Shown piece by piece: positions 8,901 to 56,195 of a stretch of 64,000 nt of DNA. The position numbers were made by a program, and so were the translations under genes. Source of the stretch: an uncultured Gammaproteobacteria bacterium (GTDB lineage Bacteria > Patescibacteriota > Patescibacteriia > JACQRZ01); NCBI GenBank assembly GCA_964621085.1, contig CAZUKY010000002.1, positions 22,637 to 86,636 of the forward strand. Reading direction: 5' to 3'. Position 1 is the first letter of the stretch, and every line of letters starts with the position of its first letter. The notes below the pieces were generated by a model that made no database searches, had not been told where the DNA came from, and saw only the letters and a program-made list of their open reading frames with translations.

Positions 8901-9131
8901 ATTCATCCTGGTGACTACCTCACGGCTTCATCAAGAAAGGGGTATGCGATGAAGGCAACCGAACCCGGCCCCATAATCGGCATCGCGCTTGAGTCCTATA
9001 CTTCGAGAACGTCAACAGAAAAGATCATGATGTTCGTGAATACTTCGGAAGGAAATACAGAACTGGTCACCCAGGAGTTATTGAAGCTTCGCAAGGAACT
9101 GGACGAGGTGAAGAAAAAGCTTCGAAAATAA
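5955..9131 (+). CDS. Phage tail-fibre-like secreted protein with C-terminal intramolecular-chaperone-like domain
   Basis: Signal peptide (..MPSQFSKRGWALLTAVGAIFALLTATASSTFAQP). The alternative start at 5979 is in frame. Five copies of the x-V-G-I-G-T-x-x-P-x-x-K/A-L motif (GNVGIGTATP, GNIGIGTADP, GNVGIGTISP, ASVGIGTNDP, GYVGIGTMQP) typical of tail-fibre-domain proteins. The C-terminus (PVALSGRVPVKV..GPIHPGDYLTASSRKGYAMKATEPGPIIGIALESY) resembles peptidase G2 / S74-type auto-processing chaperone domains. Terminal coiled coil is ELLKLRKELDEVKKKLRK. Confidence 0.55.
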   Translation: MRHFLTYPMPSQFSKRGWALLTAVGAIFALLTATASSTFAQPKSTEGPSATLNELLEDETLKKVINRGATDQSRNDASEYTGPIIFGGSLEVRGGLKGVPDSADPSDPKKNKLLLQKDGGNVGIGTATPINAALEVVKAGGVQGRFAYDADRYIDIIGNVGVKLRSADSQNNPLEIVKEGKGELVFKTGLNGATAARLIILQDGNIGIGTADPKNKLTIGSSNKIQETKGLGLGADQNVVELVHSTYGNGYGSKLYGRDFGNGGTGLAIATRGNTGTWTDAVTIRADDATGGKNGNVGIGTISPNAALAIFRNGVNAAIDLGSKGENGNYWSLRHDGSDDRLAFWFKDGGDKLSLGKDGVLSGNAFSSLAKQYDWVSLGARTMTSPQLAGIPLCGASNFNNPLEPICYTGSGSNYEFKERQGVAHPNTKQKDGTIATHALTAERKIAIGLPGSQQNALLNPSLEINQPFYSRIFLGATQYQPEAQHVKMVVDARGDGRLGGANMGQIGTISGHPLSLLTNDRERLRISEYGGAEIFASENNTNALVVNGTVRIKKVGNEHGGLYVDGPAQFRNGITFPQLDANGNPTATNLAYINQAGDAMFRNLQVNGTLTDKSGNEFKPIWSGDAAKAYLASGFENASVGIGTNDPKAKLHVEGDNGLMLSRAGNQTLGGGRIGLLVGSILNVIQSAGTGNLHISGGLVPGSDDPVRTSVILQPTDGYVGIGTMQPGEILALGGSKPAIDLGAGTENRELNAGKIAYQRWSDGLDIVGAGGPNVADRKIYFYNEGGAFFNGDVQLSATKTLRSSGRMHITGEENLYLLNKGGVVVSNAWGGNGSLTVDGKTTIGNASTRGQVMLEVLGKAEIHGDVNLKLSSANNPLAKKGSYLAYDPKVQGFDIAEKFSTDSDVEPGDVLVAGKKSNTLTLSSRQYQKGAIGVVSTSPAIVFEGGEIKLAAEARFSKGKNPPVALSGRVPVKVTLENGPIHPGDYLTASSRKGYAMKATEPGPIIGIALESYTSRTSTEKIMMFVNTSEGNTELVTQELLKLRKELDEVKKKLRK

Positions 9132-9232
9132 CAACCACTCATCTAATCCGCAGCATAAGGCGAAGCGATGACGTGATCCGTATATGAGCAAACGGAATCA
9201 GCGCTCTCGCTTCGCCTCTTCAGTAGAAAGGC

Positions 9233-13069: not shown

Positions 13070-13112
13070 AAAGAGGAGCTCTAGGGCGGAGCGCTGATGC
13101 GGTGAATGAACC

Positions 13113-13148
13113 TATCCCCACAACAAACAGAACAGGGAGTGGTATGAT
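13113..13148 (+). promoter_or_regulatory. Putative promoter: TATCCCCA, 19-nt spacer, TGGTATGAT
   Basis: tatcccca(13113-13120), 19 nt, tggtatgat(13140-13148). Lies about 70 nt upstream of the giant protein gene. Confidence 0.45.
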
Positions 13149-13217
13149 AGAAGTGCCGTTCTTATTTGAACGGCAGGGCGTTTACCGCCATTTTAGGCAA
13201 CGTATATCAAGAGGCGC

Positions 13218-16200
13218 GTGCCCGTATTTTTGAGACATCATCGGCTGGTTTTCGCTGCCGGGGTTTTGGCCCTTGGCGGGTTTTTTGGCGTTCCCGTACT
13301 TGCGAATGCTCTTAGCGTCATGGTGGCAACGCCATTTCGAATCAGTACGCCTATCAACGGAACGGTGGTCACACTGCCGGAAGCGAAAGTGACGGTTCCA
13401 ATTACTGTTGTGTCGCCAGGCGACCAATATGCTGGCGTTACGGTTACCGCAGAGATCCGTTCGGCAAGCGGTGATGTGCGGACGCTTCCGATGAGTGTTT
13501 CATCGACCGGTGCAGCCGGAACGACATTTTCTGCGCAGTGGACTGCCACGACCGTCGGGAGCTACCTGATCACTGCGCGCGCAACGCAGTCCGGGTATAA
13601 TGACCGGGTCAGTGCGCCGGTTCGCGTGAATATCATCTCTCCGTCCGGAAACGCATCAGGGCGCATTTCCGGCGCTTTTACGCAGAGTGCCGCCAAGCAA
13701 GCCGGAAAATTCGACGTCATTCCTGGAACAGATGCAGGTGCAATTCCTGGTGACTACCGCCGGCCGCGCATTGGGCCCGTTCTGCCGCCGATCTTTGAGT
13801 TCAGTATTTCGGAACCGCTTGAACAGAAAGTGATGATGGATGTCAGTCTTTACGGCGCCGAAGCGCGAAAAGCCGCGGCAGAGAACTCGCGATTCCTGCT
13901 TGATTGGAGTGCAAATACTATTGCTCGCGAGCTGTCTGCCGGTGCACAGGAACGCATTCCGATCTATCGGAATGGCGCTGCTATTGTGCTCTCTGTTGGG
14001 CAAGTCAACCAAAATGCATACATCGATCTCTACTCCGCGCCGTACTATGACGGAGTTGCCGATGATATCGAGGATCCGATAAAATCAGTTCCCGGTTTTC
14101 AGAAACTGAAGGCCTGTCCGAATGCAGTCTCGTGCATTTTTTCTTTGGGGACAGCCAAGAACGGCCGGCATATCGTAGTCGCTCGTGTCAGTGCGAATGG
14201 CATCTCGCGCTTCTCATATCGTCTTGTCGAGGTGCGCGGGCAGAATGCGGCGCCGATTGTTGCAATGAGTCTTCTGAGCGATCAGAAACCATTTCTCCTG
14301 CCGCAAAAATTGAACATCCGAGTAGATGTGGCAGATGCTGACTCGGATCGCAATGCCGCTGGCAGCCCCATCGAGCGAGTGATTATTTTTGCGGGAGACA
14401 AAAAGATTGCCGAACTCGAAAAGCCAACACAAAATATTAATACGCGCACGGAAAAATTCAATTCTCTTTTTAAAGATCTCGATTTTTCGACGTACGCCAC
14501 ACTGCAGACGTATGCGGCCGAGTGGAAGGTTGAAAGCGGCCGCCATGACCTACGCGCGGTCGCAATCGACACCGAAGGCATGCCGTCAGATCCCTTTGTT
14601 ATTAAGGATTTCATTGCAACCGAGCGGCCGAAAGTTTCTGATCTTATCGTCGTCGGAAAGGAGCGTCCGTCGGATAGCGGTCCGTGGATCGTGCAAGAAG
14701 GAGAGGAGTTCACGTTGCAAGCAAAAGCGACAGACGACGGACGCATCGTGTCGATGGCATTTACGAGCGAACAAAAGGCGGCAGGCGGCGGATCCGCCTC
14801 GCCAGTTTCCGGTGAAGACAATCTGTATCGTCTCACCGTAAAGGATCGCGCCGCCGGCGCTGAATACGTATACGCCGGCATTGCACAGGATAACGAGGGG
14901 GTTACCAACGATCCTCTGCCGCGGATGACCGTCAAGATGAATAAGAAGCCGGATATCCGAGATCTGTCCCGTGATGCCGAGGAGTATCAGCCGAATACAA
15001 AAGTAACGCTTGCCGCACTTGCAAAGGACATCGATAGCGCGCTTTCATCCGTCGAGCTCGTTGATGCAAAGACAGGAGCCCGCATCGATTTCAAAGAAAA
15101 TATCGGCGCTTCAAAAAATACCGATTACGCCTACCGCTTCGAGTGGGTGCCGCCATGGAATGAAGATGCGAAAAATGTCGATCAGAGCGCGATGCACTCG
15201 CTTAAGCTCATCGTCCGGGATGCGGACGGCGGCGTTCGCGAGGCGACCTTCCCGACGGTGACCGTTCGCAACCGTGCGCCGTCCGTCACCAAATTTTCCG
15301 CCACAAAGGCGGTGTATCAGGATACCGAGCCCGTCGTCGTATCACTTGAGGCAATCGATAACGACAGTGGCATGAACGGCGTCACATTTGTCTTGAAAAA
15401 CACCGCCGGAACACTCAGTAAAAATTTCATTCTCAATGCCCCGACGCGGCCGGTGTCAGGCATTGATGTACGACGAGGCGGGGTGTATGAGGCCGAGATA
15501 AAAAATCTTGCGCCGGACTCCTACATCATAACGGCGATCGCTTCGGATATCGCTTCGCCCGCAAAAGCATCACCCGAACAGGTGGTGAGTGTCCGTGTCA
15601 ACGCGCCGCCGACGGCAGAAGGCCTGACGGTTTCCACTCCGCTCGTCCAACCGAACGTGCCCGCGACTTTTTCGATTATCGCGCGGGACAGCGACAGCGA
15701 CGTGAAAAGCGACAGTCGGATCGGGTCGGTGATGCTGCTGCGCGATGGTGTGGAAATCGCCGTCATGCGTCTGCGCGCTGGCAGTGGCGACACCTATGAA
15801 GCGAGCTGGACGCCGACCCTGTGGTCGCCAGACATTCCCGATCAGGCACAGCAGTATATCTCGAAAGGTTTTTCCGTACGGATCGAGGATACGGATAGGC
15901 GGCGCATCGAAAAAAAGACAGACATAACAGTAACCGTCAAGAATGATCCGCCTGCGCTTGTGCCGGATGGCAAGCAGCTGACCGAGCGGAGCGTCTATCA
16001 GAAGGGCGAGACCGTGACACTCTCGGCCGCTGTCAGTGATGCGGATAGCGGCGTTGCGCGCCTTCAGTTTTTCGCGAATGGGACGGCGATTCATACCATC
16101 GACAATCCTTCCCAAAAAGTTTCGTTCCAGTGGAAGCCGACTCCCGGAAGTTATGCCCTGACGGCAACGGCGACCGATCGCGCGAAACCGGTCAAGACGG

Positions 16201-19200
16201 CACAGTATCCGTCCGGAACCAATACGGTCGCAATCAAGGTCAACAATCCGCCGACGATCGATCGCATCGAGGTTGCGCCGAGTGCGCGCAAAACGGCGGA
16301 GTACCAGCCGAACGAACCGGTGAGCGTGACGGTCTACGCGACAGATGCGGACGGAAGCATTTCTCAGTCGGAGGTGCGCCTCATTGATGAGAAGGGAGCA
16401 AATCTCCCTATTGCGCTCAAGAAGGCAACACAAGCCGCAACAAAAGACGGCAAGGGAAACACGTATGCCTTCCAGATCGAGTGGCGTCCGACGTGGGCAG
16501 AGGATGGGGCGAATACAAACCAGTCGATGGTCTTTCCGTTCCGCGCGAGCGTGAAAGATAGCGACGGCGCGCAGCCCGAGGTTCTCGAGCAGTCGCGCGT
16601 AATAGTGAAGAACAGCGCACCGACAATTTCGGCTGCGGTAGCAAAGAGCGCGGCGAGCGACGGAAGATATTACGAGGGTGTCGACATTGCGCTTTCCGCG
16701 ACCGTGAAGGACGCCGAAGGAGAGGTTGGCGGCGTTACCTTCTATCGCGAGGAAGATAAAACGGCAATCGGCACTGGCGCGCGCGGCACGGCAGATACCT
16801 TCTCATACCTTTGGAAAAACGCGGCCGCAGGCACGCACCAGCTTTCCGTAAAAGCGATCGATAAAGCCCAACCGCCAAAGACCGCGCGGTATCCGGCAGC
16901 GGCAGGGCAGTTTATTCCGATTAAGGTGCTGGCAAAGCCGTCGATCGTATCCTTTACGGGTCCGACTCCCACCGTCGTTCATCTGAGCGGCGGAAACACA
17001 GGAACGGCGTCAATTCCGTTGGAATTGAAGGTGTCGGATCCGGACGGCATTGTGGCAAAGGCCGAGATCATCGGCAAGGGTGCGATGGCATCCGTGGGCA
17101 GCGGCACATATCGGTTGACGGTGTCGGAAACCGAACAAAAGATCCACTCCTATCGGGCGCGCCTCACCGACGCGATCGGCAGGACGTATGACTCGACGGT
17201 TGTCGCGGTGCGCGTCAACAAGCTTCCGACCGCAGCGATCGTGTCGCCGGCGGAAGCGGCAGTGTATTATCCAGGAACATCAGTCACGGTTACGATTGAC
17301 GCAGCCGATCCTGACGGTTCTGCTGACGGTGCGTCTGCAGGACCGGCAGAGAGCGCTAGATTGCGCGTAACGCATGGCGGCGCGACACAGGAATATCCTG
17401 CGCAGGCAGCGGGCGTGAACCGCTATACTGCAACCTTCAAAGTCGAGACAGAGGGATCTTATTCGCTTACGGCGATTTCCCGCGATAGAGATGACAAAGA
17501 CTCCCCTCTGTCTGCATCGCGGACGATCGTCGCGCAAAATGCAACGCCCGCAGTCAGCGATCTGAAGAGCGTGAAGAGCGTCTATCAGACCGGCGAGAAT
17601 GTAACGGTGTCACTCGATGCGCTGGATGCGGACAGCGGCATGGCGCGCGTCGAGTTCCTGTTGAACGGGAAGCAGACCGGCGGCGGCGCAATTTCTGAGC
17701 GAAAGGTGTCGGTAACAGCTGCCTCTGCTGGAAATGGATGTGCGGATAAGAATAAGAAGTGCACATATACCGCGAATTTCAGCGGCATTCCGGCTGGCGA
17801 GTACTCGGTGCGTGCGGTTGCATTTGACAAGGAGACTCCCGAAAAATTCGCAGCGACCGGAACAGCGGTATCCATGAAAGTTCACCGCACGCCGATCATC
17901 AGCGCATTCTCGGCAGGGAAGCCTCTCTATCAGAAAGGAGAGCGAGTGACTGTTTCGGCTACTGTGCAGGCGGACAACGGCATTGCGGGGAGCGGGTCGG
18001 CTAGTTTTGTGGAGTTCACCGCGAATGGCGCAAGAAAAGCAGTGCGGTATCCATCATCAGGCAACTGTTCGGCGGCATCATGCACGTTCAGCAGTGTCGA
18101 TCTCGGCGTTCTTTCGGACGGTGCGACCTATACGCTTAGCATTCGCGCCGTCGATACGGCAGGGAAGGCGAGCGCGACCGGCCAGTCTGGACAGGCAGCG
18201 ACCGCATCCGTCAAGGTGAATACGCCGCCGGCCGTTTCGGTAGCCGCAGCAGCACAGGGAAGAGATGCGGCAAATCAAGAGATCCGTTCGGATATTCCCG
18301 TAACAATTACGATTGCGCCCCGCGACAGTGACGGACAGATCGCTTCTGTGACACTGACGCAAGAGTACACGCCCTCGGGCTCATCAGCAGCGACGCGAAC
18401 CGTCGAGACGGCAACGCCGGGAAGTCGCCCTTCCGGTTGGGGGTATGACGCGCAGAGCGGAAACTTCACCCGAACGATCACGCCTGCCGCGGGATCGTAC
18501 AGCCTAACAGCTGTCACGCATGACACCGATGGCGCGCCGAGCGCGGTATCGAATACGATCGCGTTTATCGGAAGAAATGAAAAGCCCTCGATTGCGAGTA
18601 TGAATGCCAGCAAGGGCGTCTATCAGCAGGGTGAGTCGATCGGCGTTGAGGTGAAGGCGAAAGATGTTGATAGTGGCATGAAAGAAGTGGCATTTGTTCT
18701 CGGCGGTGATACGCGTGCCGTTCCAGCGACACAAGCGGCTGGCGGCGGTTGCGGTACGCGGGATAAGGAGTGCGTCTACGCGACAAGCTTTTCGAGTCGC
18801 AGTCCCGGCACCTATACGATTACGGCAACTGCTCGCGATACCGTGAATCCGCCTGGAGAGGCGGGCAGGACGGCAAGTTTCCGCGTGAATGCTGCTCCGT
18901 CCGGACGCATCTCTGCTCCCCAAACCGTCCAGATGAATGCAGGATTTACACTGATCCTGGATGCGACCGACAGCGACAGCAAATCGTCCGGTCCGGCAAG
19001 CGCATCAAATGGCATCAAGAGTGTTTCCTTCTCCGGTCCCGGCGTTGACAACGCGAGAATTGCGGTGAGCAACGTGACGGCAGGCGGCGCGCGCTACTCG
19101 TTGGCAGTTTCCGGGCAAGAGGCAGGCGGCCCCAAGTCGTATTCGGCAACAATCACAGACTGGGACGACAATAGCTTTACGACACCCGTCGCCGTTGTCG

Positions 19201-21761
19201 GCGTGCAGCGTCCGCCGATCCTTACGAATATGAAGACAGACAAGCGGATCTACCAAAGAGGAGATGATGTTGTCGTTTCGATTTCCGCCCAGGCCGACAA
19301 TGGGATGGATACGCTTGAGTTTTCAACCGACAGCGGCGCGATTGTAGCGGCGGCGGTAAGTAGTGCGTGCGTATCGCGCGAGTGCTCGTACTCGGCAACG
19401 TTTACGGGGCTTGCTGATGGGCGGTCGTACACGATCACGGCGACGGCAAAGGACCGAGCAGGTAAAATCGCAAGCACGACTGCGCAGATTACAATCAACC
19501 GTCCGCCGATCCTTACGATCCCGACGAGTTACTACGCGTTCCAGCAGGGTGATGATGCGAATGTTTCAGTTACTGTGCAGGCAGACAACGGCATGGATTT
19601 TGTCGAGTTCAAAGCTGCTGGTGCAACCGTGAGAACGAATGCGCCGAGTAACGACTCATGCGTCCGTTCCAGTTGCGAGTTTAGGGGGACATTTAAGGGA
19701 CTGTCAGCAGGACAAACTCATCGAGTCAGCATCACGGCACAGGATAAGGAAAAGAAGACGGCCGCAGGTACGCTTGATATCCGCGTGATAGCGCCGCCTC
19801 AGATTACGAATTTCAAACCCGGCAAGAGCGTGTATCAGGTGAACGAGTCGGTAAGCGCATCATTGGAAGTGCAGGCGGAAAATGGCATGGCGAATGCCGG
19901 CGACTCGCCAGCGATAAAAAACAGCAGCTATGTTGACTTCCAGGTAGACGGCGCAAGTAGGCGAGACTATCCCAGCCGCGGCGACTGCCGATCGGCACCA
20001 TGTTCCGTATCAACAGCGTTCGGTGCGCTCCCCGCAGGTAAAACCTATACACTATCCGCCACGGCGCGCGACAAGGCAGGGAAAGAGGCGGGTGCAACAA
20101 CAAGCGTAAAGGTGAATGCGCCGCCGAGCGGTGGGTTTGTCCGCACGCCCGAGGTTGTCGCAATTGGTAATGCACTCACACTGACGCTCGAGGTTGAGGA
20201 TGGCGACAGCGCGGACGTATCCGCAACATTGTCGGGCCCGTACAACCCGCGGCAGGTCAGCGTCAGCGGCTCAGGGAGGAAAAAAACCTACGTCTTCACG
20301 ACCGACGGCTTGCCGCTGAACACCGCAACGCCGACGACATATTCATATAGCGCGACGATTACAGACAATGAAGGGGGAAGTGCGGCGATCAGCCATGCCG
20401 TGCGCGTCAATCGCGTTCCCACACTCTCGCTCTCTTCATCTCCGACAGGCCCTCGCCTCAGGCAGGGTACGAGCGTCACACTCACAATGACTCCGAGTGA
20501 CCCTGATGGCACTATTTCGAGCGTCGATCTCTCGATCAATGGTGCGACTGAGACAATCACGCGTGCCGGTGATGGTTCATACAAGAAGACGTTTACGCCC
20601 AATCCTGGAGGATACTCGGTATCGGCTTCTGTAAAGGATACCGATGGCGCGCGTGCGACATCGGAGATCAGTTTTAATGTAAATGCAGCGCCGTCGGCGA
20701 AAATTGTAAACACGTCACGCAATGTGTGGAATGGCCAGTCGTTCACGGCACGGCCGACAGAACCGGCCGTCAATCCGGGCGAGTGGATCAGTGTGGACGT
20801 GGAGGCGACAGACTCCGACCGGGGCATTCGGGAGATTACGGCGATATTTCAAGGAGTGACACAGACGCTGTACACGACGGGATACTCGGATTGCGTCGCT
20901 GGTGCCGCCTGCGCAAGACGGTTTGATTTTCATGCTCCCTCCGGCGGGTGGCGGCCCGGAACGCACGAGCTGATCATCGAGACATACGACCGCGAGCCGC
21001 CGGACGCGCGCATGAGCGCACGGGTGAGTAAATCGATCCGCGTGAATGCGCCGCCTGTCGTCTCGTGGTATACGGTCAATATGCCAGGCCGCGGATACGT
21101 CTGGTGGTCATGGTGGGGAGGAGGCGCTCCGCCGGCACAGAGTATGAAGCTGGGTGAGGGCACAGCGTATCTTTACATGACAGCATACGATGATGGCGAG
21201 CTTGATAACAACACGGCATTCTTCGTAATCAATGGGAGTACTATCAAAGCTACGCATTACAGTACAAGTGGACAAACGCGCTATTATTACGCGACATATA
21301 CGCCATCACGGAGCGGACAATACACAATTACCGGACAAGTTGGCGATACGCAAGGCGGACTTACAGTACTTGGTAGAGATAAGGCTTTTGTGCTGACGGT
21401 CATAAATGATCCTCCGGTCGTATCAAATTTCACCCGCAAACTTGTTAGTAATTACCCGTACTGCGTACTCAATCTTTCTATGGAAGCCGCCGATGCTGCA
21501 CCGGGTGTCAGTTGGATGGGATTTTTATCGCTTTATAATTACTGGTCATGGCGATGGCCGGCATGGAGATGGGGTGGAGGGAAGTATGAAGCAAATGTAA
21601 CCTTCACAGAACCAGGAACACATTTGATTTCTGCGCGTGCGGCAGATCATGAAGGGGGATATACTGCGACGAGCGATGCCTACGTGTACATTGGTGACCG
21701 AGGATGGATCTGGGACTGGTGGAGTGGATGGCGTAGAGGCACCTATTGCGCGTATTACTAG
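13218..21761 (+). CDS. Giant secreted surface protein (2847 aa) of tandem bacterial Ig-like (Big-type) domains with Trp-rich C-terminal modules
   Basis: Signal peptide MPVFLRHHRLVFAAGVLALGGFFGVPVLANA. More than 20 repeats of ~100 aa with the pattern VN-x-PP..YQxGExVxVsxxAxDxDSGxxxVxF..NG...G.Y.LTA.A.D, joined by VNAPP / VKNSAP / VNRPP linkers. The last three modules carry W-x-W-x-W motifs (VWWSWWGGG, WSWRWPAWRWGGG, WIWDWWSGWRRG). Confidence 0.6.
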   Translation: MPVFLRHHRLVFAAGVLALGGFFGVPVLANALSVMVATPFRISTPINGTVVTLPEAKVTVPITVVSPGDQYAGVTVTAEIRSASGDVRTLPMSVSSTGAAGTTFSAQWTATTVGSYLITARATQSGYNDRVSAPVRVNIISPSGNASGRISGAFTQSAAKQAGKFDVIPGTDAGAIPGDYRRPRIGPVLPPIFEFSISEPLEQKVMMDVSLYGAEARKAAAENSRFLLDWSANTIARELSAGAQERIPIYRNGAAIVLSVGQVNQNAYIDLYSAPYYDGVADDIEDPIKSVPGFQKLKACPNAVSCIFSLGTAKNGRHIVVARVSANGISRFSYRLVEVRGQNAAPIVAMSLLSDQKPFLLPQKLNIRVDVADADSDRNAAGSPIERVIIFAGDKKIAELEKPTQNINTRTEKFNSLFKDLDFSTYATLQTYAAEWKVESGRHDLRAVAIDTEGMPSDPFVIKDFIATERPKVSDLIVVGKERPSDSGPWIVQEGEEFTLQAKATDDGRIVSMAFTSEQKAAGGGSASPVSGEDNLYRLTVKDRAAGAEYVYAGIAQDNEGVTNDPLPRMTVKMNKKPDIRDLSRDAEEYQPNTKVTLAALAKDIDSALSSVELVDAKTGARIDFKENIGASKNTDYAYRFEWVPPWNEDAKNVDQSAMHSLKLIVRDADGGVREATFPTVTVRNRAPSVTKFSATKAVYQDTEPVVVSLEAIDNDSGMNGVTFVLKNTAGTLSKNFILNAPTRPVSGIDVRRGGVYEAEIKNLAPDSYIITAIASDIASPAKASPEQVVSVRVNAPPTAEGLTVSTPLVQPNVPATFSIIARDSDSDVKSDSRIGSVMLLRDGVEIAVMRLRAGSGDTYEASWTPTLWSPDIPDQAQQYISKGFSVRIEDTDRRRIEKKTDITVTVKNDPPALVPDGKQLTERSVYQKGETVTLSAAVSDADSGVARLQFFANGTAIHTIDNPSQKVSFQWKPTPGSYALTATATDRAKPVKTAQYPSGTNTVAIKVNNPPTIDRIEVAPSARKTAEYQPNEPVSVTVYATDADGSISQSEVRLIDEKGANLPIALKKATQAATKDGKGNTYAFQIEWRPTWAEDGANTNQSMVFPFRASVKDSDGAQPEVLEQSRVIVKNSAPTISAAVAKSAASDGRYYEGVDIALSATVKDAEGEVGGVTFYREEDKTAIGTGARGTADTFSYLWKNAAAGTHQLSVKAIDKAQPPKTARYPAAAGQFIPIKVLAKPSIVSFTGPTPTVVHLSGGNTGTASIPLELKVSDPDGIVAKAEIIGKGAMASVGSGTYRLTVSETEQKIHSYRARLTDAIGRTYDSTVVAVRVNKLPTAAIVSPAEAAVYYPGTSVTVTIDAADPDGSADGASAGPAESARLRVTHGGATQEYPAQAAGVNRYTATFKVETEGSYSLTAISRDRDDKDSPLSASRTIVAQNATPAVSDLKSVKSVYQTGENVTVSLDALDADSGMARVEFLLNGKQTGGGAISERKVSVTAASAGNGCADKNKKCTYTANFSGIPAGEYSVRAVAFDKETPEKFAATGTAVSMKVHRTPIISAFSAGKPLYQKGERVTVSATVQADNGIAGSGSASFVEFTANGARKAVRYPSSGNCSAASCTFSSVDLGVLSDGATYTLSIRAVDTAGKASATGQSGQAATASVKVNTPPAVSVAAAAQGRDAANQEIRSDIPVTITIAPRDSDGQIASVTLTQEYTPSGSSAATRTVETATPGSRPSGWGYDAQSGNFTRTITPAAGSYSLTAVTHDTDGAPSAVSNTIAFIGRNEKPSIASMNASKGVYQQGESIGVEVKAKDVDSGMKEVAFVLGGDTRAVPATQAAGGGCGTRDKECVYATSFSSRSPGTYTITATARDTVNPPGEAGRTASFRVNAAPSGRISAPQTVQMNAGFTLILDATDSDSKSSGPASASNGIKSVSFSGPGVDNARIAVSNVTAGGARYSLAVSGQEAGGPKSYSATITDWDDNSFTTPVAVVGVQRPPILTNMKTDKRIYQRGDDVVVSISAQADNGMDTLEFSTDSGAIVAAAVSSACVSRECSYSATFTGLADGRSYTITATAKDRAGKIASTTAQITINRPPILTIPTSYYAFQQGDDANVSVTVQADNGMDFVEFKAAGATVRTNAPSNDSCVRSSCEFRGTFKGLSAGQTHRVSITAQDKEKKTAAGTLDIRVIAPPQITNFKPGKSVYQVNESVSASLEVQAENGMANAGDSPAIKNSSYVDFQVDGASRRDYPSRGDCRSAPCSVSTAFGALPAGKTYTLSATARDKAGKEAGATTSVKVNAPPSGGFVRTPEVVAIGNALTLTLEVEDGDSADVSATLSGPYNPRQVSVSGSGRKKTYVFTTDGLPLNTATPTTYSYSATITDNEGGSAAISHAVRVNRVPTLSLSSSPTGPRLRQGTSVTLTMTPSDPDGTISSVDLSINGATETITRAGDGSYKKTFTPNPGGYSVSASVKDTDGARATSEISFNVNAAPSAKIVNTSRNVWNGQSFTARPTEPAVNPGEWISVDVEATDSDRGIREITAIFQGVTQTLYTTGYSDCVAGAACARRFDFHAPSGGWRPGTHELIIETYDREPPDARMSARVSKSIRVNAPPVVSWYTVNMPGRGYVWWSWWGGGAPPAQSMKLGEGTAYLYMTAYDDGELDNNTAFFVINGSTIKATHYSTSGQTRYYYATYTPSRSGQYTITGQVGDTQGGLTVLGRDKAFVLTVINDPPVVSNFTRKLVSNYPYCVLNLSMEAADAAPGVSWMGFLSLYNYWSWRWPAWRWGGGKYEANVTFTEPGTHLISARAADHEGGYTATSDAYVYIGDRGWIWDWWSGWRRGTYCAYY

Positions 21762-46416: not shown

Positions 46417-46953
46417 TCAGTAATCAAATAACATTGGAGAGAAAATACTCTTCTCTTCGATGGCTAGGGGGAATTCTTTTCCTAGGAAAGAGGATATCTC
46501 TGAAATATGTTTTTGAATATGTTTTTCACGCGTATCAATATCCAAAAGCATTTTTTTCTCCCCACGGTTTTTTAAAAGAAGTATAAGCGTCGGCAGATAA
46601 GAGGGGCCAGGCTCAAAACTTGGATTGCGACGCCTCTCTATAATAAAACCCTCGATATCATTAAACGACACATGGACACTTCTTTTTTTGAAGCCGAGAA
46701 GTGTTTTTTCAAGAACGCACTCTTGTGTTGTTGCATCGAACGTAATATTTTTTCTATCCTGTGAGAGGAGACCAACAGCAAGTGTAAGGATTACGAACAA
46801 TGATACTCCAACTCCGCGGATGAAAAATCCTGATCCATATATTCCCATGACCACTCCAATAGTAAGAAGGCATACCGCTAAAATAAGACTAAGGAATCTT
46901 TTGTTGTGCTCGAGCGTAAGAACAAGCTGATTATTGCGTAGCACTGTTTTCAT
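46417..46953 (-). CDS. Hypothetical membrane protein (178 aa), low-GC
   Basis: Two predicted N-terminal TM helices (FLSLILAVCLLTIGVVMGIYGSGFFIRGVGVSLFVILTLAVGLL). No recognisable family. Markedly AT-richer than neighbours. Confidence 0.5.
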   Translation of the reverse strand: MKTVLRNNQLVLTLEHNKRFLSLILAVCLLTIGVVMGIYGSGFFIRGVGVSLFVILTLAVGLLSQDRKNITFDATTQECVLEKTLLGFKKRSVHVSFNDIEGFIIERRRNPSFEPGPSYLPTLILLLKNRGEKKMLLDIDTREKHIQKHISEISSFLGKEFPLAIEEKSIFSPMLFDY

Positions 46954-46969
46954 AGGGATTCAGTCAACC

Positions 46970-47854
46970 TCATTCAAGAACACAGCAAGCCTTTACTGAA
47001 AGAACAAACATTCCGATTGTGTAGAGCGCCATGATAAGAATGAGCGCTAACAACGAAAAAAGAGCAATGTTCCGATACCGGGAGCGATGATCTTTTTTCT
47101 TTGTGTACATCACGGCAGACCAAATTAGAAGAACTGTTGCGATTACCCCAAGTATAAGACAGATGGTCCTGAGAAGATTAATAATAACATCCTCTAAAGT
47201 TCCCACTGCACTTGGTTCGAGGGGGACAACCGGAAGCGTTTCCTCGGATTTTAATGGCGGCGTATACACATATTCATACCCTGGCGCAATCGGGTCTGCC
47301 ATTCCTTCTTTCATTGTTGCATACGCATGTTCTTGAACGCTTCCGTCATTTTTTTCAATAATGCGTTTAGCAAGCCGAAGTGAAAAATGCTGATCATCGA
47401 GCACGTCAATCGTGAACACGTCTTCTATTTTCTTCCGCGGATCTTCGAGATCATACACCTTGATTGGCGAAACGGGCACCTCCACTTCGGAATGAAGAAC
47501 ATCTTTGCTGGTATTGAAATAATCGATTTCTTTCCATAATTCGGTGGGATCCAGTGCCCGGATACCGGATTGCAGAAACTGCTTGCTTTGTACGGCAACT
47601 ATTTCATCGCGGTTGCTCCGCGCAAAGCACTCATTCGCGATGAGGGGAACAAACGGATCCCGAAAATCATCTTTATCTGCTGTTGGGTATCGGGCAATGA
47701 GTCGGTATTTCAGATGATAGTCTTCAAGGTTCTCAATGCGATAGCAATACTCAATTTCCTTGAGCGGCGGCTCGATTGCGCCATGAACCGGAAATACAGG
47801 AAACAATAAAATAAACATCAGAACTGCACCACACCGCTGATTATTTACTGACAT
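46970..47854 (-). CDS. Hypothetical secreted / C-terminally anchored protein (294 aa), low-GC
   Basis: Signal peptide (..GAVLMFILLFPVFPVHGA). Two C-terminal TM helices (..ICLILGVIATVLLIWSAVMY.. and ..IALFSLLALILIMALYTIGMFVL). AT-rich. Confidence 0.5.
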   Translation of the reverse strand: MSVNNQRCGAVLMFILLFPVFPVHGAIEPPLKEIEYCYRIENLEDYHLKYRLIARYPTADKDDFRDPFVPLIANECFARSNRDEIVAVQSKQFLQSGIRALDPTELWKEIDYFNTSKDVLHSEVEVPVSPIKVYDLEDPRKKIEDVFTIDVLDDQHFSLRLAKRIIEKNDGSVQEHAYATMKEGMADPIAPGYEYVYTPPLKSEETLPVVPLEPSAVGTLEDVIINLLRTICLILGVIATVLLIWSAVMYTKKKDHRSRYRNIALFSLLALILIMALYTIGMFVLSVKACCVLE

Positions 47855-49790: not shown

Positions 49791-49819
49791 ATTCAAGACT
49801 CTCGTATACTCTCCCACAT

Positions 49820-49891
49820 GCGCCCGTCGTTTAATGGATAGGACACGTGGCTTCGAACCACGCAATGGGAGTTCGATTCTCTCCGGGCGCA
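49820..49891 (+). tRNA. tRNA-Arg (anticodon TCG)
   Basis: Acceptor GCGCCCG/CGGGCGC, anticodon stem CGTGG/CCACG with loop CTTCGAA, T-arm GGGAG-TTCGATT-CTCTC, discriminator A. No encoded CCA. Confidence 0.75.
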
Positions 49892-49904
49892 AGGGCAAGT
49901 TAGT

Positions 49905-49950
49905 AAACGAACAACCGCCTCTCTCCTGAGAGGCGGTTGTTCGTTTTGGG
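49905..49950. terminator. Bidirectional terminator between tRNA-Arg (+) and the MgtE-like gene (-)
   Basis: 19-bp stem aaacgaacaaccgcctctc / gagaggcggttgttcgttt with a TCCT loop and a T-run. Confidence 0.7.
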
Positions 49951-49969
49951 ATACGCTCGCCGATTTTTA

Positions 49970-50611
49970 TCAGAGCATGATGGTACTCGCGATCAGGCCA
50001 TATATCAGCACGCTCGCGGTATCCTGGATGACCGTAGCGATGGGGCCTGCGCCGACGGCAGGATCCTTGTGCTCCAACTGAAGGGCTTCCGTGACGGCCA
50101 ATGCGATCAGTGGCGCTGATGCGATGGCGCCGAACAGCGAGAGCGAGACGGTCGCTGCTAACTCCCAGTCTTTAAACCAGATGAGAATGATTGGTATGAC
50201 CAGTACGGCAAATAAGAATCCAAAGAAGAGCCCTAATGCGCTTTCTTTGAGAAGATATTTTTTGAAATCCGCCTTTCCACTCTTCAGGTCGCGAGCGTAT
50301 ATGCTTTGTGTTTGCGTGCCGACTGCCGCAGCGAGATACACGACCAGAGGAATAAAAAATGCAACAGCGATATTTTTTGAAAGCACCTCCTCAAATCGAG
50401 CGACGACCGATGAAAGGACGATGCCAAGGATAAGTCCCATGAGCAGCGACGGGATCCTGAGTCGAAAAAGAGAGCCTATGGATCCGGTGTCATCATCCGC
50501 CAGTATGATTTTTTCTTTTCGCATATCGTATGTGACCTCTTTAGCATACCAGAAAAACATCCACGCGTGAGGTCGTATGCTCCATTCCGTATTCTTGAAC
50601 GAACGCAACAT
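49970..50611 (-). CDS. MgtE/SLC41-type divalent-cation transporter, membrane domain only
   Basis: Five TM helices. ..PLIALAVTEALQLEHKDPAVGAGPIATVIQDTASVLIYGLIAS.. matches the MgtE C-terminal pore domain. No CBS or N-domain is encoded. Confidence 0.6.
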   Translation of the reverse strand: MLRSFKNTEWSIRPHAWMFFWYAKEVTYDMRKEKIILADDDTGSIGSLFRLRIPSLLMGLILGIVLSSVVARFEEVLSKNIAVAFFIPLVVYLAAAVGTQTQSIYARDLKSGKADFKKYLLKESALGLFFGFLFAVLVIPIILIWFKDWELAATVSLSLFGAIASAPLIALAVTEALQLEHKDPAVGAGPIATVIQDTASVLIYGLIASTIML

Positions 50612-50718
50612 CTTGATTCGCTAGATGCCGACTTTAGTCTCGGCTTTGAAGTTGTCTTTGCCCCCTTCATAAAATTCGGTAAAATAAGTGCACCGTTTGC
50701 TGAATTATTGGAAACGGA

Positions 50719-51135
50719 TTGAACGATGGTGAGCGTATGCTTCTCGTAAAAACGAAGATCGGTCAGAGTGCTATTCATGGCATCGGCTTGTTTGCAGATC
50801 AGTTCATTCCTGAAGGGACGCCGATATGGAAATTTCAGCTCGGCTTTGACCTCAAGGTTGATACAGATGAACTTTCTCGATTGTCTGAGCCGGCAAGGGA
50901 GCAGTTTCTCAAATATGCGTATTTGAATCCGCAAACCAACACATACGTTTTGTGTTTTGATGACGCGCGGTATTTCAACCATTCCGATGACCCGAACTGT
51001 GCGGATGTCGAGTCGCCCGATGGGGAAGAAGAGGGAATCACCGTTGCGATCAAAGATGTTCCTGCGGGCGAAGAGCTGACATGGAACTATCGGGAATCCG
51101 ATGCCGATTTTGAGTCGAAAATGAAAGCGCGATAA
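50719..51135 (+). CDS. SET-domain protein (putative protein-lysine methyltransferase)
   Basis: GIGLFADQFIPEGTPIW.. and the NHS-x-x-PN motif (YFNHSDDPNCA) with E..L.WNY at the C-terminus. 138 aa. Confidence 0.65.
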   Translation: MNDGERMLLVKTKIGQSAIHGIGLFADQFIPEGTPIWKFQLGFDLKVDTDELSRLSEPAREQFLKYAYLNPQTNTYVLCFDDARYFNHSDDPNCADVESPDGEEEGITVAIKDVPAGEELTWNYRESDADFESKMKAR

Positions 51136-51139
51136 GGGT

Positions 51140-51967
51140 ATGCCAGTAGCACGAATTCTCCACTCCGCATTTCTTGATGAGAAATCGCGAGTGTATCACA
51201 TTTTTCACGACGTTCTTTCTGTCATTATTCTTGTTTCGATTGTTGCTGTCATTCTTGAGTCGGTCGACTCCCTGGCCGTGCGCTATGCGCAGTTATTCTT
51301 TTGGGCTGAGGTGGTATTTATCAGTATTTTTCTCTGCGAATATATCATTCGTCTTTGCGTGACGCCCAAACCCCTTGCGTATGCCGTGAGCCCGATGGGC
51401 ATTATTGATCTCATCGCGATTGTGCCCGGCCTTATCGTATTGGGGTATCCGTTAGCGCAAGAATACCTTTCGCTTCGAGTGCTGCGTATCTTGCGTATTC
51501 TTCGCTTGTTGCGTCTTTTTCGGGTGCTCAAGCTTATTAGCTACGCGCAGCGGCGTTGGAATGGGAATACGATGTGGGACAACCTTCAGTGGCAAAATAT
51601 TCAAATCTACGTTTTTTCCGTATTTTCTCTCGTCGTTATTTCCGGTACTCTTATCTATCTTGCCGAGTTGCGGGCCGTCGATCCTGTATTTAAAAATATC
51701 CCCGAGGCGCTGTGGTGGTCGGTGGTAACGGTGAGTACCGTCGGATACGGCGATTTTGTTCCTGCAACACCGTTGGGCAAGGTGATCGCTGCGCTAACGA
51801 TGCTCTCGGGACTTGCGCTTTTTGCAATGCTTGTGAGTGTCATGGGAAAGAGCTTGCAGAGGACTATTTTCGGGTCCACTCTTGAGGAGACCGAGTTGCT
51901 CGGGGGCGGGGTGCAAAGCGCGCCAAAGCGAAAGGTGCGATCGTATCAGCGGTCTGCAAGCAAATAG
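51140..51967 (+). CDS. Voltage-gated-type potassium channel (6TM, Kv-like)
   Basis: S4-like segment with regularly spaced Arg (LRVLRILRILRLLRLFRVLKL). Pore helix and selectivity filter WWSVVTVSTVGYGDF. Start lies 4 nt after the SET gene stop. Confidence 0.75.
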   Translation: MPVARILHSAFLDEKSRVYHIFHDVLSVIILVSIVAVILESVDSLAVRYAQLFFWAEVVFISIFLCEYIIRLCVTPKPLAYAVSPMGIIDLIAIVPGLIVLGYPLAQEYLSLRVLRILRILRLLRLFRVLKLISYAQRRWNGNTMWDNLQWQNIQIYVFSVFSLVVISGTLIYLAELRAVDPVFKNIPEALWWSVVTVSTVGYGDFVPATPLGKVIAALTMLSGLALFAMLVSVMGKSLQRTIFGSTLEETELLGGGVQSAPKRKVRSYQRSASK

Positions 51968-52002
51968 CACCTCGCGTGCGCGCGTTCGGAGCTAGTGCCA
52001 CA

Positions 52003-52692
52003 TCACGCCTGTTCCCATGCCGAGCGGGGATCGGGCATTTCATTGTACTGCTTTCTGAATGTCGCATACTGTTCGGCGCTTAAGTGCCGCGTGTTGAGGC
52101 CGTCAGGGCCGAGATACGTATAGTTCCCATCAGGTTGGAGTTCTGCTGTTTCGATGATCCGTTTCAGCGGCTCGCGTCGTTCCCGATATCCCGATGCATA
52201 ATGGGCCTTATCATCCAACTGATACCCATGGTAGTCCAGCGAGCGATCGGCACTCAATGCTTGATACCGTTGATCTTGCTGGAGCGCCGAGTACAGCAGC
52301 TTCGCATCCGCAACACTTGCGAAATTCGCCACGAACCGAGTTTCTCTTCCGTCCATATGCGACGGGAAGCTTTTTGTCGTATCGATGAATTTGAATGCGA
52401 GCGGTATTTTGAGTTGATGTGCTTTTTCCAAAAGAAGCTCCTTGAGCGCATCAAGTGAAGATATCGGCACATCGAAATACATGCGCTCTTTGCCCCACTC
52501 AGCCGTGCCGGCTGCCTTGCGCTCATTCCATTCATTGTTTGAGTATGAGTGCCAGAACATTCCCTGGTCGGTTTCCCCGTGGGCGTACGTGAAGTTTTCA
52601 AAACGGTCTTTTTCGTTGTGTTCTGGGCTCTGTGTCGAGATATTAAGTTGCTCCCGTATTTTATTGATTCTTTGGTTGGCCTGTGTGCCCAC
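52003..52692 (-). CDS. Hypothetical protein (229 aa)
   Basis: ORF only. No recognisable motif. Overlaps the upstream hypothetical gene by 32 nt. Confidence 0.35.
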   Translation of the reverse strand: MGTQANQRINKIREQLNISTQSPEHNEKDRFENFTYAHGETDQGMFWHSYSNNEWNERKAAGTAEWGKERMYFDVPISSLDALKELLLEKAHQLKIPLAFKFIDTTKSFPSHMDGRETRFVANFASVADAKLLYSALQQDQRYQALSADRSLDYHGYQLDDKAHYASGYRERREPLKRIIETAELQPDGNYTYLGPDGLNTRHLSAEQYATFRKQYNEMPDPRSAWEQA

Positions 52693-53221
52693 TCTGAAAG
52701 ACCATTGCCAGCGCGATTTTTTTCAAAAGCGCGCCATATGCATACGAATCGGCCGATCGTGAAAATTGAAAGGATATGGGTGAGTGCGGATCCCGCTCTT
52801 TTGCTAAACGGTAGTGCGTACGCATTTTATCGAGAAGATGCTTCTCATGCGGTGCAAGAGAAATCGGCAGTGCCTCTTCGCCGCGAAAGAAGGCTCCGAT
52901 ACGAGATGGCGCGTTGTTCAACTCCTCTTCAAATATGATTCGATCGTGTGATGAAAGTTTTGCGGCTACCGCATCCTGGTTATGATAATTGGTCAGAGCG
53001 CGCTGTTCTTCAAAAGAGCGTAATGCACAAATCGCGTTTTCCCGCCGCTGCTGTTCGGCGGTCGTCTTATCGGGATCGACGAATATCTGCTGCTGCCACA
53101 ACTCCTCGACAATGTCGCTTGGCAGATTCCGGTACTGCGCCGGAACGCTATCCAGTGCGGAGGAAGCCGCATCCTGATGCTTGGATTGGGGGGACGCTTC
53201 AATGGGTTCTTGATCTGTCAT
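52661..53221 (-). CDS. Hypothetical protein (186 aa)
   Basis: ORF only. Acidic N-terminus. No recognisable motif. Confidence 0.35.
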   Translation of the reverse strand: MTDQEPIEASPQSKHQDAASSALDSVPAQYRNLPSDIVEELWQQQIFVDPDKTTAEQQRRENAICALRSFEEQRALTNYHNQDAVAAKLSSHDRIIFEEELNNAPSRIGAFFRGEEALPISLAPHEKHLLDKMRTHYRLAKERDPHSPISFQFSRSADSYAYGALLKKIALAMVFQSGHTGQPKNQ

Positions 53222-53328
53222 AGTTCATTCAAACTAGCATGTTCTTTCACAACATCAACTCTCCTGTGTTGTGGGGAGAGGCCTCTTGATTTTTCCAGAA
53301 GGAATCGTATACTATAAAAACTGCACAT

Positions 53329-53404
53329 GCGCTCATAGCTCAGTCGGTAGAGCAGCTCGCTCTTAACGAGATGGTCGGGGGTTCGAATCCCTCTGGGCGC
53401 ACCA
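53329..53404 (+). tRNA. tRNA-Lys (anticodon CTT), CCA encoded
   Basis: GCGCTCA-TA-GCTC-AGTCGGTA-GAGC.., anticodon loop CTCTTAA, T-arm GGGGG-TTCGAAT-CCCTC, acceptor TGGGCGC, then ACCA. Confidence 0.8.
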
Positions 53405-54671: not shown

Positions 54672-56195
54672 TTACCGCGCGAACTCGATAATTCGCTTTT
54701 CGCGGATGAGCGTTACTTTCAACTCGCCCGGATACTGAAGCTCGTCCTCGATGCGTTTGGCGATGGTTTTGGCAAGCTTGTGCGCGCCGACGTCGTCGAC
54801 GTTTTCCGGCGTGACAAAGACGCGGATCTCGCGGCCGGCCTGGATGGCATACGCCTTCTCGACGCCGTCAAACGAGGTTGCCAGGCCCTCAAGTTCAGTA
54901 ATGCGTTGGAGATACTTTTCTGCCGTGTCGCGGCGGGCGCCCGGACGGCTCGCAGAAAGCGCGTCGGCCACCTTGACGATGACGCCCTCGAGCGTGCGCG
55001 GGCTGTCTTCGTGGTGCGCGATTGCCATGTAGGCGATCTCCTCGGGAAGGTTGAACTTCTTCATGATCTCATATCCGATCTGCGGGTGGCCGCCCTGCAC
55101 CTCGTGGTCGACTGCTTTACCGATATCGTGCAAGAGCCCGCCCTTTTTGCAGACGGCGACGTTTGCGCCCAATTCTTCGGCAAGGAAGGTTGCAAGATAT
55201 CCGACCTCCAGCGAGTGCAAGAGCGCGTTCTGGCCATAGCTAGTGCGATACTTGAGCCGTCCCAAAATCTGGACGAGCCGCGGATCCAGTCCCGTGATGC
55301 CGAGCTGGAAGACCGACTCGTCACCGGCTTTTTTGATGTCTTGCGCCAACTCCTGTTTTGCCGCTTCGACGTATTCTTCGATGCGCCCTGGATGGATACG
55401 TCCGTCTTTGAGGAGTTTTTCGATAGCGATTTTTGCAACGTGGCGGCGGATCAGGCTGAAGCTGGAGAGCGTGATCGCCTGCGGCGTGTCGTCGATGATG
55501 ATCTCGACGCCGGTAAGGTTTTCAATCGCGCGAATGTTGCGGCCCTCTTTGCCGATGATGCGGCCCTTCATCTCGTCTGACGGCAAGTTCACCGATGTGG
55601 TTGTCGTCTCGGATACGACCGACATGGCGTAGCGCTGCATGGCGTCTGCGATGATTGAGCGGGACTTCATCTGCAGCTCGTCAACCCCTTCCTGCTCGAT
55701 CTTCTTGATGCGCGCGACAACATCCTCGCGCGCCTCGCGCTCGACGTGGTCAAGAAGGATCTGTTTCGCTTCTTCGCGACTCAGGGCGGCGACGCGTTCC
55801 AGTTTGGCAAGCTGTTCTTCCTTGATTTTTGCGATCTCGCCCTTGATCTGGTCGATCTGCGCTGCTTTTTCGTGGATTTTTTGCTGCTTCTCCTGCAGTT
55901 CGAGGAGTTTTTGGTCAAACAGCGCTTCGCGGCGCTCAAGACGCTGTTGGATATGCGCGGTCTCTTTGCGGCGCTGTTCCGTTTCTTTTTTCGCCTCGTC
56001 GATAATTGCCAGCGCCTTGTCCTTTGCGCGGAGCAGGATGTCGCTTTCTTTTGTCTTTGCCTCGGTCAAAATCTTCTCGGCCTTGTTTTCCGCCGAGTTG
56101 ATCTGGTTTGCGCCGAGCTGTTTGCGGATAAGATATCCCAGCGCGCCGCCCAAGAGCAACGAAACGATCGTTACAATAAAAATAATCGCTTCCAT
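54672..56195 (-). CDS. rny: Ribonuclease Y
   Basis: N-terminal TM (IIFIVTIVSLLLGGALGYLI), coiled-coil, KH domain (..IGKEGRNIRAIENLTGVEIIID..), HD domain (..HSLEVGYLATFLAEELGA..LLHDIGKA..). Confidence 0.9.
   Translation of the reverse strand: MEAIIFIVTIVSLLLGGALGYLIRKQLGANQINSAENKAEKILTEAKTKESDILLRAKDKALAIIDEAKKETEQRRKETAHIQQRLERREALFDQKLLELQEKQQKIHEKAAQIDQIKGEIAKIKEEQLAKLERVAALSREEAKQILLDHVEREAREDVVARIKKIEQEGVDELQMKSRSIIADAMQRYAMSVVSETTTTSVNLPSDEMKGRIIGKEGRNIRAIENLTGVEIIIDDTPQAITLSSFSLIRRHVAKIAIEKLLKDGRIHPGRIEEYVEAAKQELAQDIKKAGDESVFQLGITGLDPRLVQILGRLKYRTSYGQNALLHSLEVGYLATFLAEELGANVAVCKKGGLLHDIGKAVDHEVQGGHPQIGYEIMKKFNLPEEIAYMAIAHHEDSPRTLEGVIVKVADALSASRPGARRDTAEKYLQRITELEGLATSFDGVEKAYAIQAGREIRVFVTPENVDDVGAHKLAKTIAKRIEDELQYPGELKVTLIREKRIIEFAR

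Follow-up and report, generated by a model that had tools for sequence, protein, structure and literature searches.

A SET-domain gene and a voltage-gated-type K+ channel gene as adjacent, lineage-specific cargo of an inter-tRNA segment in an Uhrbacteria-like bacterium

In this study, we found that a SET-domain methyltransferase gene and a voltage-gated-type K+ channel gene, which lie 4 nt apart in the window (the whole stretch of 64,000 nt of DNA that was analysed), are a lineage-specific cargo of a hypervariable inter-tRNA segment, since related genomes keep the backbone and the tRNA genes of this site but swap all of its cargo. The adjacency of the two genes is coincidental or lineage-specific. 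In the reading that we consider probable, the two genes belong to known families, are intact and independent of each other, and stand side by side in this lineage alone, the SET protein acting on a soluble basic protein and the channel functioning independently of it. The SET protein would then be a stand-alone lysine methyltransferase whose family, to which the Methanosarcina SET proteins also belong, is mobile and occurs in prokaryotes and viruses, and the channel would work alone in K+ and membrane-potential homeostasis. Both genes, together with an MgtE-like gene and two further cargo ORFs, would share a 3.4-kb segment whose content is replaced wholesale in related Uhrbacteria, and the 4-nt spacing would reflect compact packing of accessory cargo rather than a methyltransferase-channel system. 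The initial annotation had proposed lysine methylation of the channel or of a partner, or a shared regulatory response. Neither proposal found support at the locus, and the pair was absent from 329 other loci. Taken singly, the SET and channel genes are ordinary representatives of familiar families, and nothing beyond their proximity argues for methylation of the channel.

The SET-domain gene is located at 50737-51135 on the forward strand and encodes a predicted stand-alone minimal lysine methyltransferase of 132 aa from an ATG start (Pfam SET, 2.1e-15). It is followed on the same strand at 51140-51967 by the channel gene, which encodes a KvAP-like 6TM voltage-gated-type K+ channel of 275 aa (Pfam Ion_trans, 6.1e-28; Ion_trans_2, 6.3e-19). 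Read directly from the DNA, the SET gene closes with a TAA at 51133-51135 and the channel gene opens with its ATG at 51140, and the spacer between them is the four nucleotides GGGT (51136-51139, forward strand). The MgtE-like gene (49970-50611, reverse strand; 213 aa, membrane domain only; Pfam MgtE, 5.7e-17) is divergent from the SET gene, from which it is separated by an intergenic region of 125 nt (50612-50736). The initial annotation had placed these ORFs correctly on the DNA, and it was also right about the 4-nt spacing and the divergent MgtE-like gene. The longest SET ORF runs from a TTG at 50719 to 51135 (138 aa), six codons upstream of the likely ATG. All 25 aligned SET homologues begin with MLLVKTK or a near variant, and the gene call in the public assembly is the 132-aa form from ATG 50737. 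Because the homologue N-termini and the public gene call agree, the start was taken as ATG 50737, directly before which stands an SD-like GGTGAG.

The junction between the two genes was then read for signs of coupled expression. Two overlapping sigma-70-like matches were present on the forward strand at 50646-50685 in the divergent intergenic region, a weak signal in that the count of promoter-like matches equals the shuffle expectation. A promoter and terminator scan, with counts at the shuffled expectation, found no terminator-like site between the SET and channel genes. Gaps of 10 nt or less occur in 6 of 32 same-strand gene pairs in the window, where the median gap is 74 nt, and the SET-channel gap is among the tightest. 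Given the 4-nt gap and the lack of a terminator between them, the two genes are very probably one transcription unit, which would be transcribed from the 125-nt divergent intergenic region. The channel ATG has no well-spaced SD, as AAGGG ends 1 nt before it and GAAAG lies 13 nt upstream. For this reason, it is plausible that the channel is translated by reinitiation of ribosomes terminating on the SET gene. In a compact CPR genome, however, a 4-nt junction is not evidence of functional coupling.

The SET protein consists of a SET domain and nothing else. It matched Pfam PF00856 with 57.4 bits against a gathering cut-off of 22.4, covering profile positions 1-104 of 105. The GxG SAM-binding motif was found as GIGLFA (50779-50796), the NHS..PN SAM-binding and pseudoknot motif as RYFNHSDDPN (50968-50997), and the ELxxxY motif, with the catalytic Tyr Y118, as GEELTWNY (51067-51090), all on the forward strand; they aligned to GLGLYA, ARYINHSCAPN and KGEELTYDY of MLL4, respectively. 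The NHS..PN motif of the initial annotation stood, while its E..L.WNY pattern was one residue off, the sequence being E-E-L-T-W-N-Y. In an alignment of 26 sequences, G17 of the GxG motif was invariant and G15 nearly so; R78, N81, H82 and N87 were invariant, as were G111, E112, E113 and T115, and Y118 was conserved in at least 90%. The AlphaFold model had a pLDDT of 86.3 and a pTM of 0.73. The best 50 Foldseek matches of this model were all SET enzymes with a probability of 1.00, including MLL4, MLL1, SET8 and vSET. A profile search of PDB sequences with the SET family gave MLL4, MLL3 and MLL1 at E values of about 1e-12, with all motifs aligned. These results suggest that the SET protein looks catalytically competent, as judged from its residues. 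The initial annotation had allowed for the loss of the catalytic Tyr or of the SAM-binding residues, but all of them were present on alignment.

We also considered whether the SET gene has decayed or codes for a remnant without enzymatic function, which would make the pairing meaningless on that ground. The protein has only 132 aa and no post-SET zinc cluster, and at the second residue before the catalytic Tyr it carries a Trp instead of the Cys seen in most of the family. However, its defining motifs are intact and invariant in a family with 1239 detected members, and its fold was modelled with confidence. A post-SET region is not needed for activity in minimal SET enzymes such as vSET, and vSET is itself among the Foldseek matches. 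The chance that the gene is such a remnant is very small.

The earlier description of the second gene as that of a 6TM channel with a regular-Arg S4 segment and a TVGYGD filter was borne out. The channel matched Ion_trans with 98.1 bits (residues 21-241) and Ion_trans_2 with 68.1 bits (residues 161-240), and its hydropathy peaks were consistent with S1-S3, S5 and S6. F64 and E67, which lie in the S2 segment FLCEY (51329-51343), and D90 of S3 (within 51398-51412), all on the forward strand, were invariant in 26 channel homologues. We take F64, E67 and D90 to be the gating charge-transfer centre, in line with established knowledge of Kv channels. The S4 voltage-sensor helix, LRVLRILRILRLLRLFRVLK (51473-51532, forward strand; residues 112-131), has a basic residue at every third position (six Arg and one Lys), and R116, R119, R122, R125 and R128 were invariant in an alignment with the 25 closest homologues. 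The K+ selectivity filter TVGYGD was located at 51737-51754 on the forward strand (residues 200-205), with G202, Y203, G204 and D205 invariant. The channel family profile matched Kv4.3, Kv4.2, Kv2.1 and Kv1.2 at about 1e-41 to 5e-45 (Kv4.3 at 5e-45). It also matched KvAP and prokaryotic 6TM Kv channels (PDB 1orq, 2a0l, 6uwm) at 1.5e-35 to 7e-34. The KvAP-type channels and the window channel share a 6TM architecture without cytoplasmic domains, an S4 Arg ladder and the TVGYGD filter, whereas the window channel belongs to a separate subfamily, known chiefly from uncultivated bacteria. Its closest database protein was 57% identical. By these features, the protein is a bona fide 6TM member of the Kv family without cytoplasmic domains, with a predicted voltage-gated K+ conductance.

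Since both genes are intact, we considered whether they form a functional unit, in which the SET protein would methylate a lysine of the channel itself (one in its basic C-terminal tail, for instance) or of a channel partner, with translational coupling setting the ratio of the two proteins. The 4-nt gap and the lack of a good SD before the channel ATG fit termination-reinitiation, the SET protein is catalytically complete by its motifs, and the cytoplasmic tail of the channel is Lys/Arg-rich (APKRKVRSYQRSASK) and could in principle be a substrate. Moreover, in about 11 other CPR genomes, genes of the SET family are linked to one for an uncharacterised multi-pass membrane protein, and membrane-associated SET targets are for this reason not implausible. 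Methylation of the channel by the SET protein would, if true, be the first regulation of a prokaryotic ion channel by lysine methylation. Against this, the C-terminal tail was not conserved even among the closest channel homologues, the pair did not recur in any of the 329 loci of other organisms and viruses, and the related genomes described below have neither gene at the site. We therefore regard a functional unit of the two proteins as highly unlikely.

Partner genes were sought by tblastn and profile HMM around 80 loci from genomes, 80 from metagenomes and 160 from viruses, and on 12 individual contigs; outside the window's own organism, none was found. Within 5 kb on either side of the SET gene in the best 80 of 236 genome SET loci (47-73% identity), neither a channel homologue (tblastn and profile HMM) nor an MgtE homologue (tblastn) was found. 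No SET gene lay within 4 kb of the channel relatives in 80 metagenome channel loci, and the two did not co-occur in 80 SET-anchored or 80 channel-anchored viral loci. Among 82 SET-anchored and 87 channel-anchored non-viral loci, both genes were present only in one, L081, which comes from another assembly of the organism of the window; the Logan assembly of run SRR5011273 likewise contains this locus. At least 850 nt of sequence was available downstream of the gene in 79 of the 82 SET-anchored loci, and at least 450 nt upstream in 66 of the 87 channel-anchored loci. Outside the window's organism, the pair was found in 0 of 162 SET-anchored and 0 of 167 channel-anchored loci from genomes, metagenomes and viral contigs. 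The conservation of the SET-Kv pair, which the initial annotation had put forward as a test by gene neighbourhood, was thus not borne out.

The closest relatives gave the same picture. Near the two closest relatives of the SET protein (P0002 and P0004; 71-73% identical) no partner was found, and the neighbours were RibD_C, or a periplasmic-binding protein with an unknown protein. Near six channel relatives (P0123, P0125, P0127, P0128, P0129 and P0134; 45-56% identical) no SET gene was found; the neighbours were DUF389, CorA, NUDIX, RecJ/PGK, Na_Ca_ex/glutaredoxin and redoxin/G6PD. A seventh channel relative, P0130, lay at a contig edge and was uninformative upstream. The best relatives in the databases were 73% (SET) and 57% (channel) identical, and none was close enough to report on conservation within the genus. 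A fusion of SET with Ion_trans was also absent from the best 120 matches of either protein, which counts against a functional unit; the best 120 channel matches had PF00520 with PF07885, some with a zinc ribbon (PF13248, PF13240), PF24460 or PF08016. Full-text searches of the literature gave no description of an operon of SET with a K+ channel, nor any work on the SET proteins of CPR bacteria.

We then examined what stands directly behind SET homologues elsewhere. Genes starting 30 nt or less downstream of a SET homologue were found in 19 other genomes and belonged to unrelated families, including RuvB, ATP synthase alpha/beta, exonuclease VII, CN hydrolase, arginase, peptidase C26, SDR, NUDIX and others. 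The sole recurring tight follower in these 19 genomes was a second SET paralogue. The tight partners elsewhere are random in kind, which also argues against a functional unit, and these results indicate that genes of this family commonly abut whatever gene happens to follow. Neither HU, YmdB, the MgtE-like protein nor the two cargo ORFs recurred near the SET or channel homologues in other genomes. Because HU does not recur near SET homologues, its proximity in the window gives no hint to the SET substrate. It may be that the SET and channel genes were acquired jointly, as a block from an unsampled donor. A horizontally acquired SET protein could also have been recruited in this Uhrbacteria lineage to methylate the co-transcribed channel or the neighbouring MgtE-like protein, which we consider very improbable.

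The genomic site of the two genes was compared with those of related organisms. The RNase Y of the window (54672-56195, reverse strand) was 81% identical to proteins named Candidatus Uhrbacteria, and on this ground the organism was taken to be Uhrbacteria-like (Patescibacteria). Synteny was examined in L171 and L173, the nearest two relatives for which contigs of more than 100 kb are available and whose RNase Y is 76-77% identical. Both keep IF-2, RbfA, ClpP, RNase Y, YmdB and HU in the order of the window and, beyond HU, tRNA-Lys(ctt) followed by tRNA-Arg(tcg). In the window, tRNA-Arg(tcg) at 49819-49892 and tRNA-Lys(ctt) at 53329-53404, both on the forward strand and both also present in the relatives, bound the segment. 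The cargo between the tRNA genes differed in all three genomes. In the window, it comprised 3.4 kb with two ORFs without a match, the channel, the SET protein and the MgtE-like protein; in L171, 4.8 kb with three unknown ORFs, a serpin and an unknown protein of 582 aa; and in L173, 3.4 kb with deoxyhypusine synthase, PIN, MazE and two unknowns. No SET or channel gene was found in the 21.5 kb examined in L171 and L173. The GC content of the segment genes was 0.48-0.51 against 0.55-0.57 in the flanking housekeeping genes. In this lineage, the stretch from tRNA-Lys to tRNA-Arg thus evidently serves as a site of hypervariable cargo.

Such a site could hold a single mobile cassette, acquired as a whole and inserted by a tRNA gene, in which the MgtE-like, SET and Kv genes and the two cargo ORFs would make up a stress or ion-homeostasis islet without direct interaction of their products. 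The two bounding tRNA genes, the GC content below that of the flanks and the replacement of the segment content in relatives are consistent with this, and viral contigs carry relatives of the SET protein as well as of the channel. PHROG matches in the segment were limited to two proteins: the channel, with more than one family and phrog_7872 as the best (1.4e-39), and the SET protein, whose match was weak. On the other hand, neither an integrase nor att-like direct repeats were found in the inter-tRNA segment, which also contained no PADLOC match and no phage hallmark gene, and none of the five genes co-occurred with another in any locus examined. One mobile cassette is therefore unlikely, although we give it some weight, and the preferred reading remains that of two independent genes within replaceable cargo.

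The other members of the cargo were also characterised. The MgtE-like protein matched Pfam MgtE with 62.6 bits and TIGR00400 at positions 277-447 of 450, with 84.1 bits against a cut-off of 232.75. The membrane domain of the MgtE Mg2+ channel described by TIGR00400 is homologous to the window protein, which however lacks the N-terminal and CBS regulatory domains of MgtE. The protein is not an MgtE equivalog. Its earlier description as a truncated MgtE-like channel was fair, as the membrane domain alone was matched. Two overlapping ORFs of 229 and 186 aa at 52003-53221 on the reverse strand are called as genes in the public assembly, and neither had a match in Pfam, NCBIfam, PHROG or PADLOC.

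A total of 1239 SET relatives were detected among 5.8 billion proteins, with a best database identity of 73%; the best 120 of these 1239 were nearly all 126-146 aa long with PF00856 only. A scan of one genome per GTDB species gave 236 SET relatives. They included proteins from Patescibacteria (Yanofskybacteria, Falkowbacteria, Magasanikbacteria, Saccharibacteria and WWE3), from archaea (Methanosarcina, with 65-66% identity, and Methanoperedens) and from other bacteria (Myxococcota, Pyrinomonadaceae, Ignavibacteriales and others), and at least 271 viral contigs carried SET relatives. The family is clearly patchy, horizontally mobile and both prokaryotic and viral.

Among characterised systems, the stand-alone SET of Methanosarcina (Go1-SET of M. 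mazei) is similar to the window protein in having about 131 aa and the SET domain alone. The Methanosarcina homologues recovered here (L007-L009, L040 and cluster P0042) were 65-66% identical to the window SET over the full length and had all motifs in common with it; no K+ channel is adjacent in their loci, unlike in the window. According to the summary in PMC3980110 of the work of Manzur and Zhou (2005), in vitro methylation by the M. mazei SET enzyme has been reported for histone H4 and for MC1-alpha, a chromatin protein. P0042 is a Methanosarcina-wide SET protein cluster, and its 15 listed members do not include M. mazei. As the cluster is labelled 'MULTISPECIES' and spans the genus, we infer that the assayed M. 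mazei protein (AAM32541) probably belongs to the same family. MC1 is an archaeal protein, and the substrate of the bacterial SET protein must therefore differ from that of M. mazei. By analogy with the M. mazei enzyme, the substrate of the window SET is most likely a soluble basic protein.

The best sequence match to the window SET (E 1e-12) was with MLL/KMT2-type SET domains (PDB 4z4p, 2w5y/2w5z, 5f59), which were also the best structural match to its model (Foldseek E 2e-7, TM about 0.65). The GxG, NHSxxPN and ELxxDY motifs align between them. In contrast to MLL/KMT2, the window protein has no post-SET zinc cluster, flanking domains or WRAD-type partners, and the identity is 24-27%. vSET of Paramecium bursaria chlorella virus 1 (PDB 3kma) is a minimal SET-only protein similar in size to the window SET, and it matched the model with a TM of 0.61 (query) and 0.75 (target) at 21% identity. 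Viral contigs often carry relatives of the window SET family, and vSET is likewise viral. The target of vSET is host histone H3K27; whereas vSET acts on a histone, the organism of the window has no histones.

A different gene context of the SET family was observed in about 10-12 other CPR genomes. There, the SET gene stands in a four-gene cluster with a divergent SET paralogue of 160-180 aa, an uncharacterised multi-pass membrane protein of about 195-228 aa without a Pfam match, and a HisKA/HATPase_c histidine kinase. The cluster membrane protein (alignment A4) and the second SET paralogue were absent from the window. The cluster membrane protein was compared with the window MgtE-like protein as a possible relative and was rejected, with an hhalign probability of 0.4%. 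The cluster persists despite altered gene order and strand, and it was the only recurrent context found for the SET family. If the SET protein of the window did methylate its channel or the MgtE-like protein, the link of SET to the multi-pass membrane protein and the histidine kinase in CPR genomes would point to a general membrane-protein-directed role. The four-gene cluster is a better lead to the function of the SET family than the pairing with the channel.

The genes lying between tRNA-Lys(ctt) and tRNA-Arg(tcg) were compared in the window and in two Uhrbacteria-like relatives, L171 and L173. This interval (49819-53404 in the window, L171:13938-18869, L173:15561-19111) adjoins a conserved RNase Y-YmdB-HU block, and its gene cargo was wholly unlike in the three related genomes. 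A serpin gene was found in L171, and a deoxyhypusine synthase gene with PIN/MazE in L173. We searched the window's inter-tRNA segment for an integrase and for att repeats, and neither was seen. The tRNA-Lys(ctt)-tRNA-Arg(tcg) interval is a hypervariable site. The stretch that separates tRNA-Arg from the MgtE-like gene's stop codon holds a perfect inverted repeat (49905-49946; 19-bp arms, 4-nt loop), which is probably a bidirectional terminator.

Relatives of the minimal SET family, 30-52% identical, were detected on at least 271 viral contigs in IMG/VR, some of them 200-640 kb in length. Kv-like channels with 6TM were found on at least 298 viral contigs in the same database, and the window's channel matched phrog_7872 at 1.4e-39. 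A SET relative and a Kv-like channel never occurred together within ±5 kb on the viral contigs of the 160 loci inspected (L175-L334). Among close channel homologues, a CorA gene was directly downstream of the channel in L165 (246-1948), and an Na_Ca_ex gene was directly upstream of it in L083 (2899-4849). In this very small sample of two loci, the adjacency of channel and transporter loosely resembles the arrangement in the window, where an MgtE-like gene is close to the channel.

In about 10-12 genomes labelled CPR/Saccharibacteria, the window's SET family (SET1) was clustered with three further genes (L012:4160-7689 and L021:1964-5387; also L013, L022, L025, L029, L032, L053, L061, L074 and L080). 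The partners are a divergent SET paralogue of 160-180 aa (SET2), a histidine kinase of ~545 aa (HK), and an uncharacterised multi-pass membrane protein of ~195-228 aa (TM), which had no Pfam match. The motifs PNATSWxIW and, further along, ExPxxWxxW suggest an internal repeat in the TM protein. Since gene order and strand vary among loci, from TM->SET1->SET2->HK to HK<-SET2<-TM | SET1->, the linkage looks to be under selection. The cluster was absent from the window. In Pyrinomonadaceae (L056:2063-5369; L062, L065, L068), an ATP-grasp/Orn-Arg-decarboxylase fusion and an uncharacterised 222-aa protein precede the SET homologue, and in four Patescibacteria (L023, L033, L057, L079) a saccharopine-dehydrogenase-like gene is directly upstream of it. 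These contexts may be polyamine-related and confined to small clades.

Within the window's SET protein, Trp116 (51082-51084) stands two residues ahead of the catalytic Tyr, in ELTWNY. Cys occupied the equivalent position in 18 of 25 aligned SET homologues (ELTCNY/ELTCDY), and judged from this alignment an altered substrate-lysine pocket is possible.

Elsewhere in the window, two minus-strand ORFs of 178 and 294 aa (46417-47854) had markedly low GC (0.39 and 0.44 vs about 0.55) and no match in Pfam or NCBIfam. The 294-aa product has a signal-like N-terminal segment and hydrophobic C-terminal segments. This pair may be another foreign insertion. Three giant ORFs of 1058, 1278 and 2847 aa follow in succession at 5955-21761; the first two had no Pfam match, and the third carries Big_7 and other Ig-like repeats, which are typical of large CPR surface proteins.
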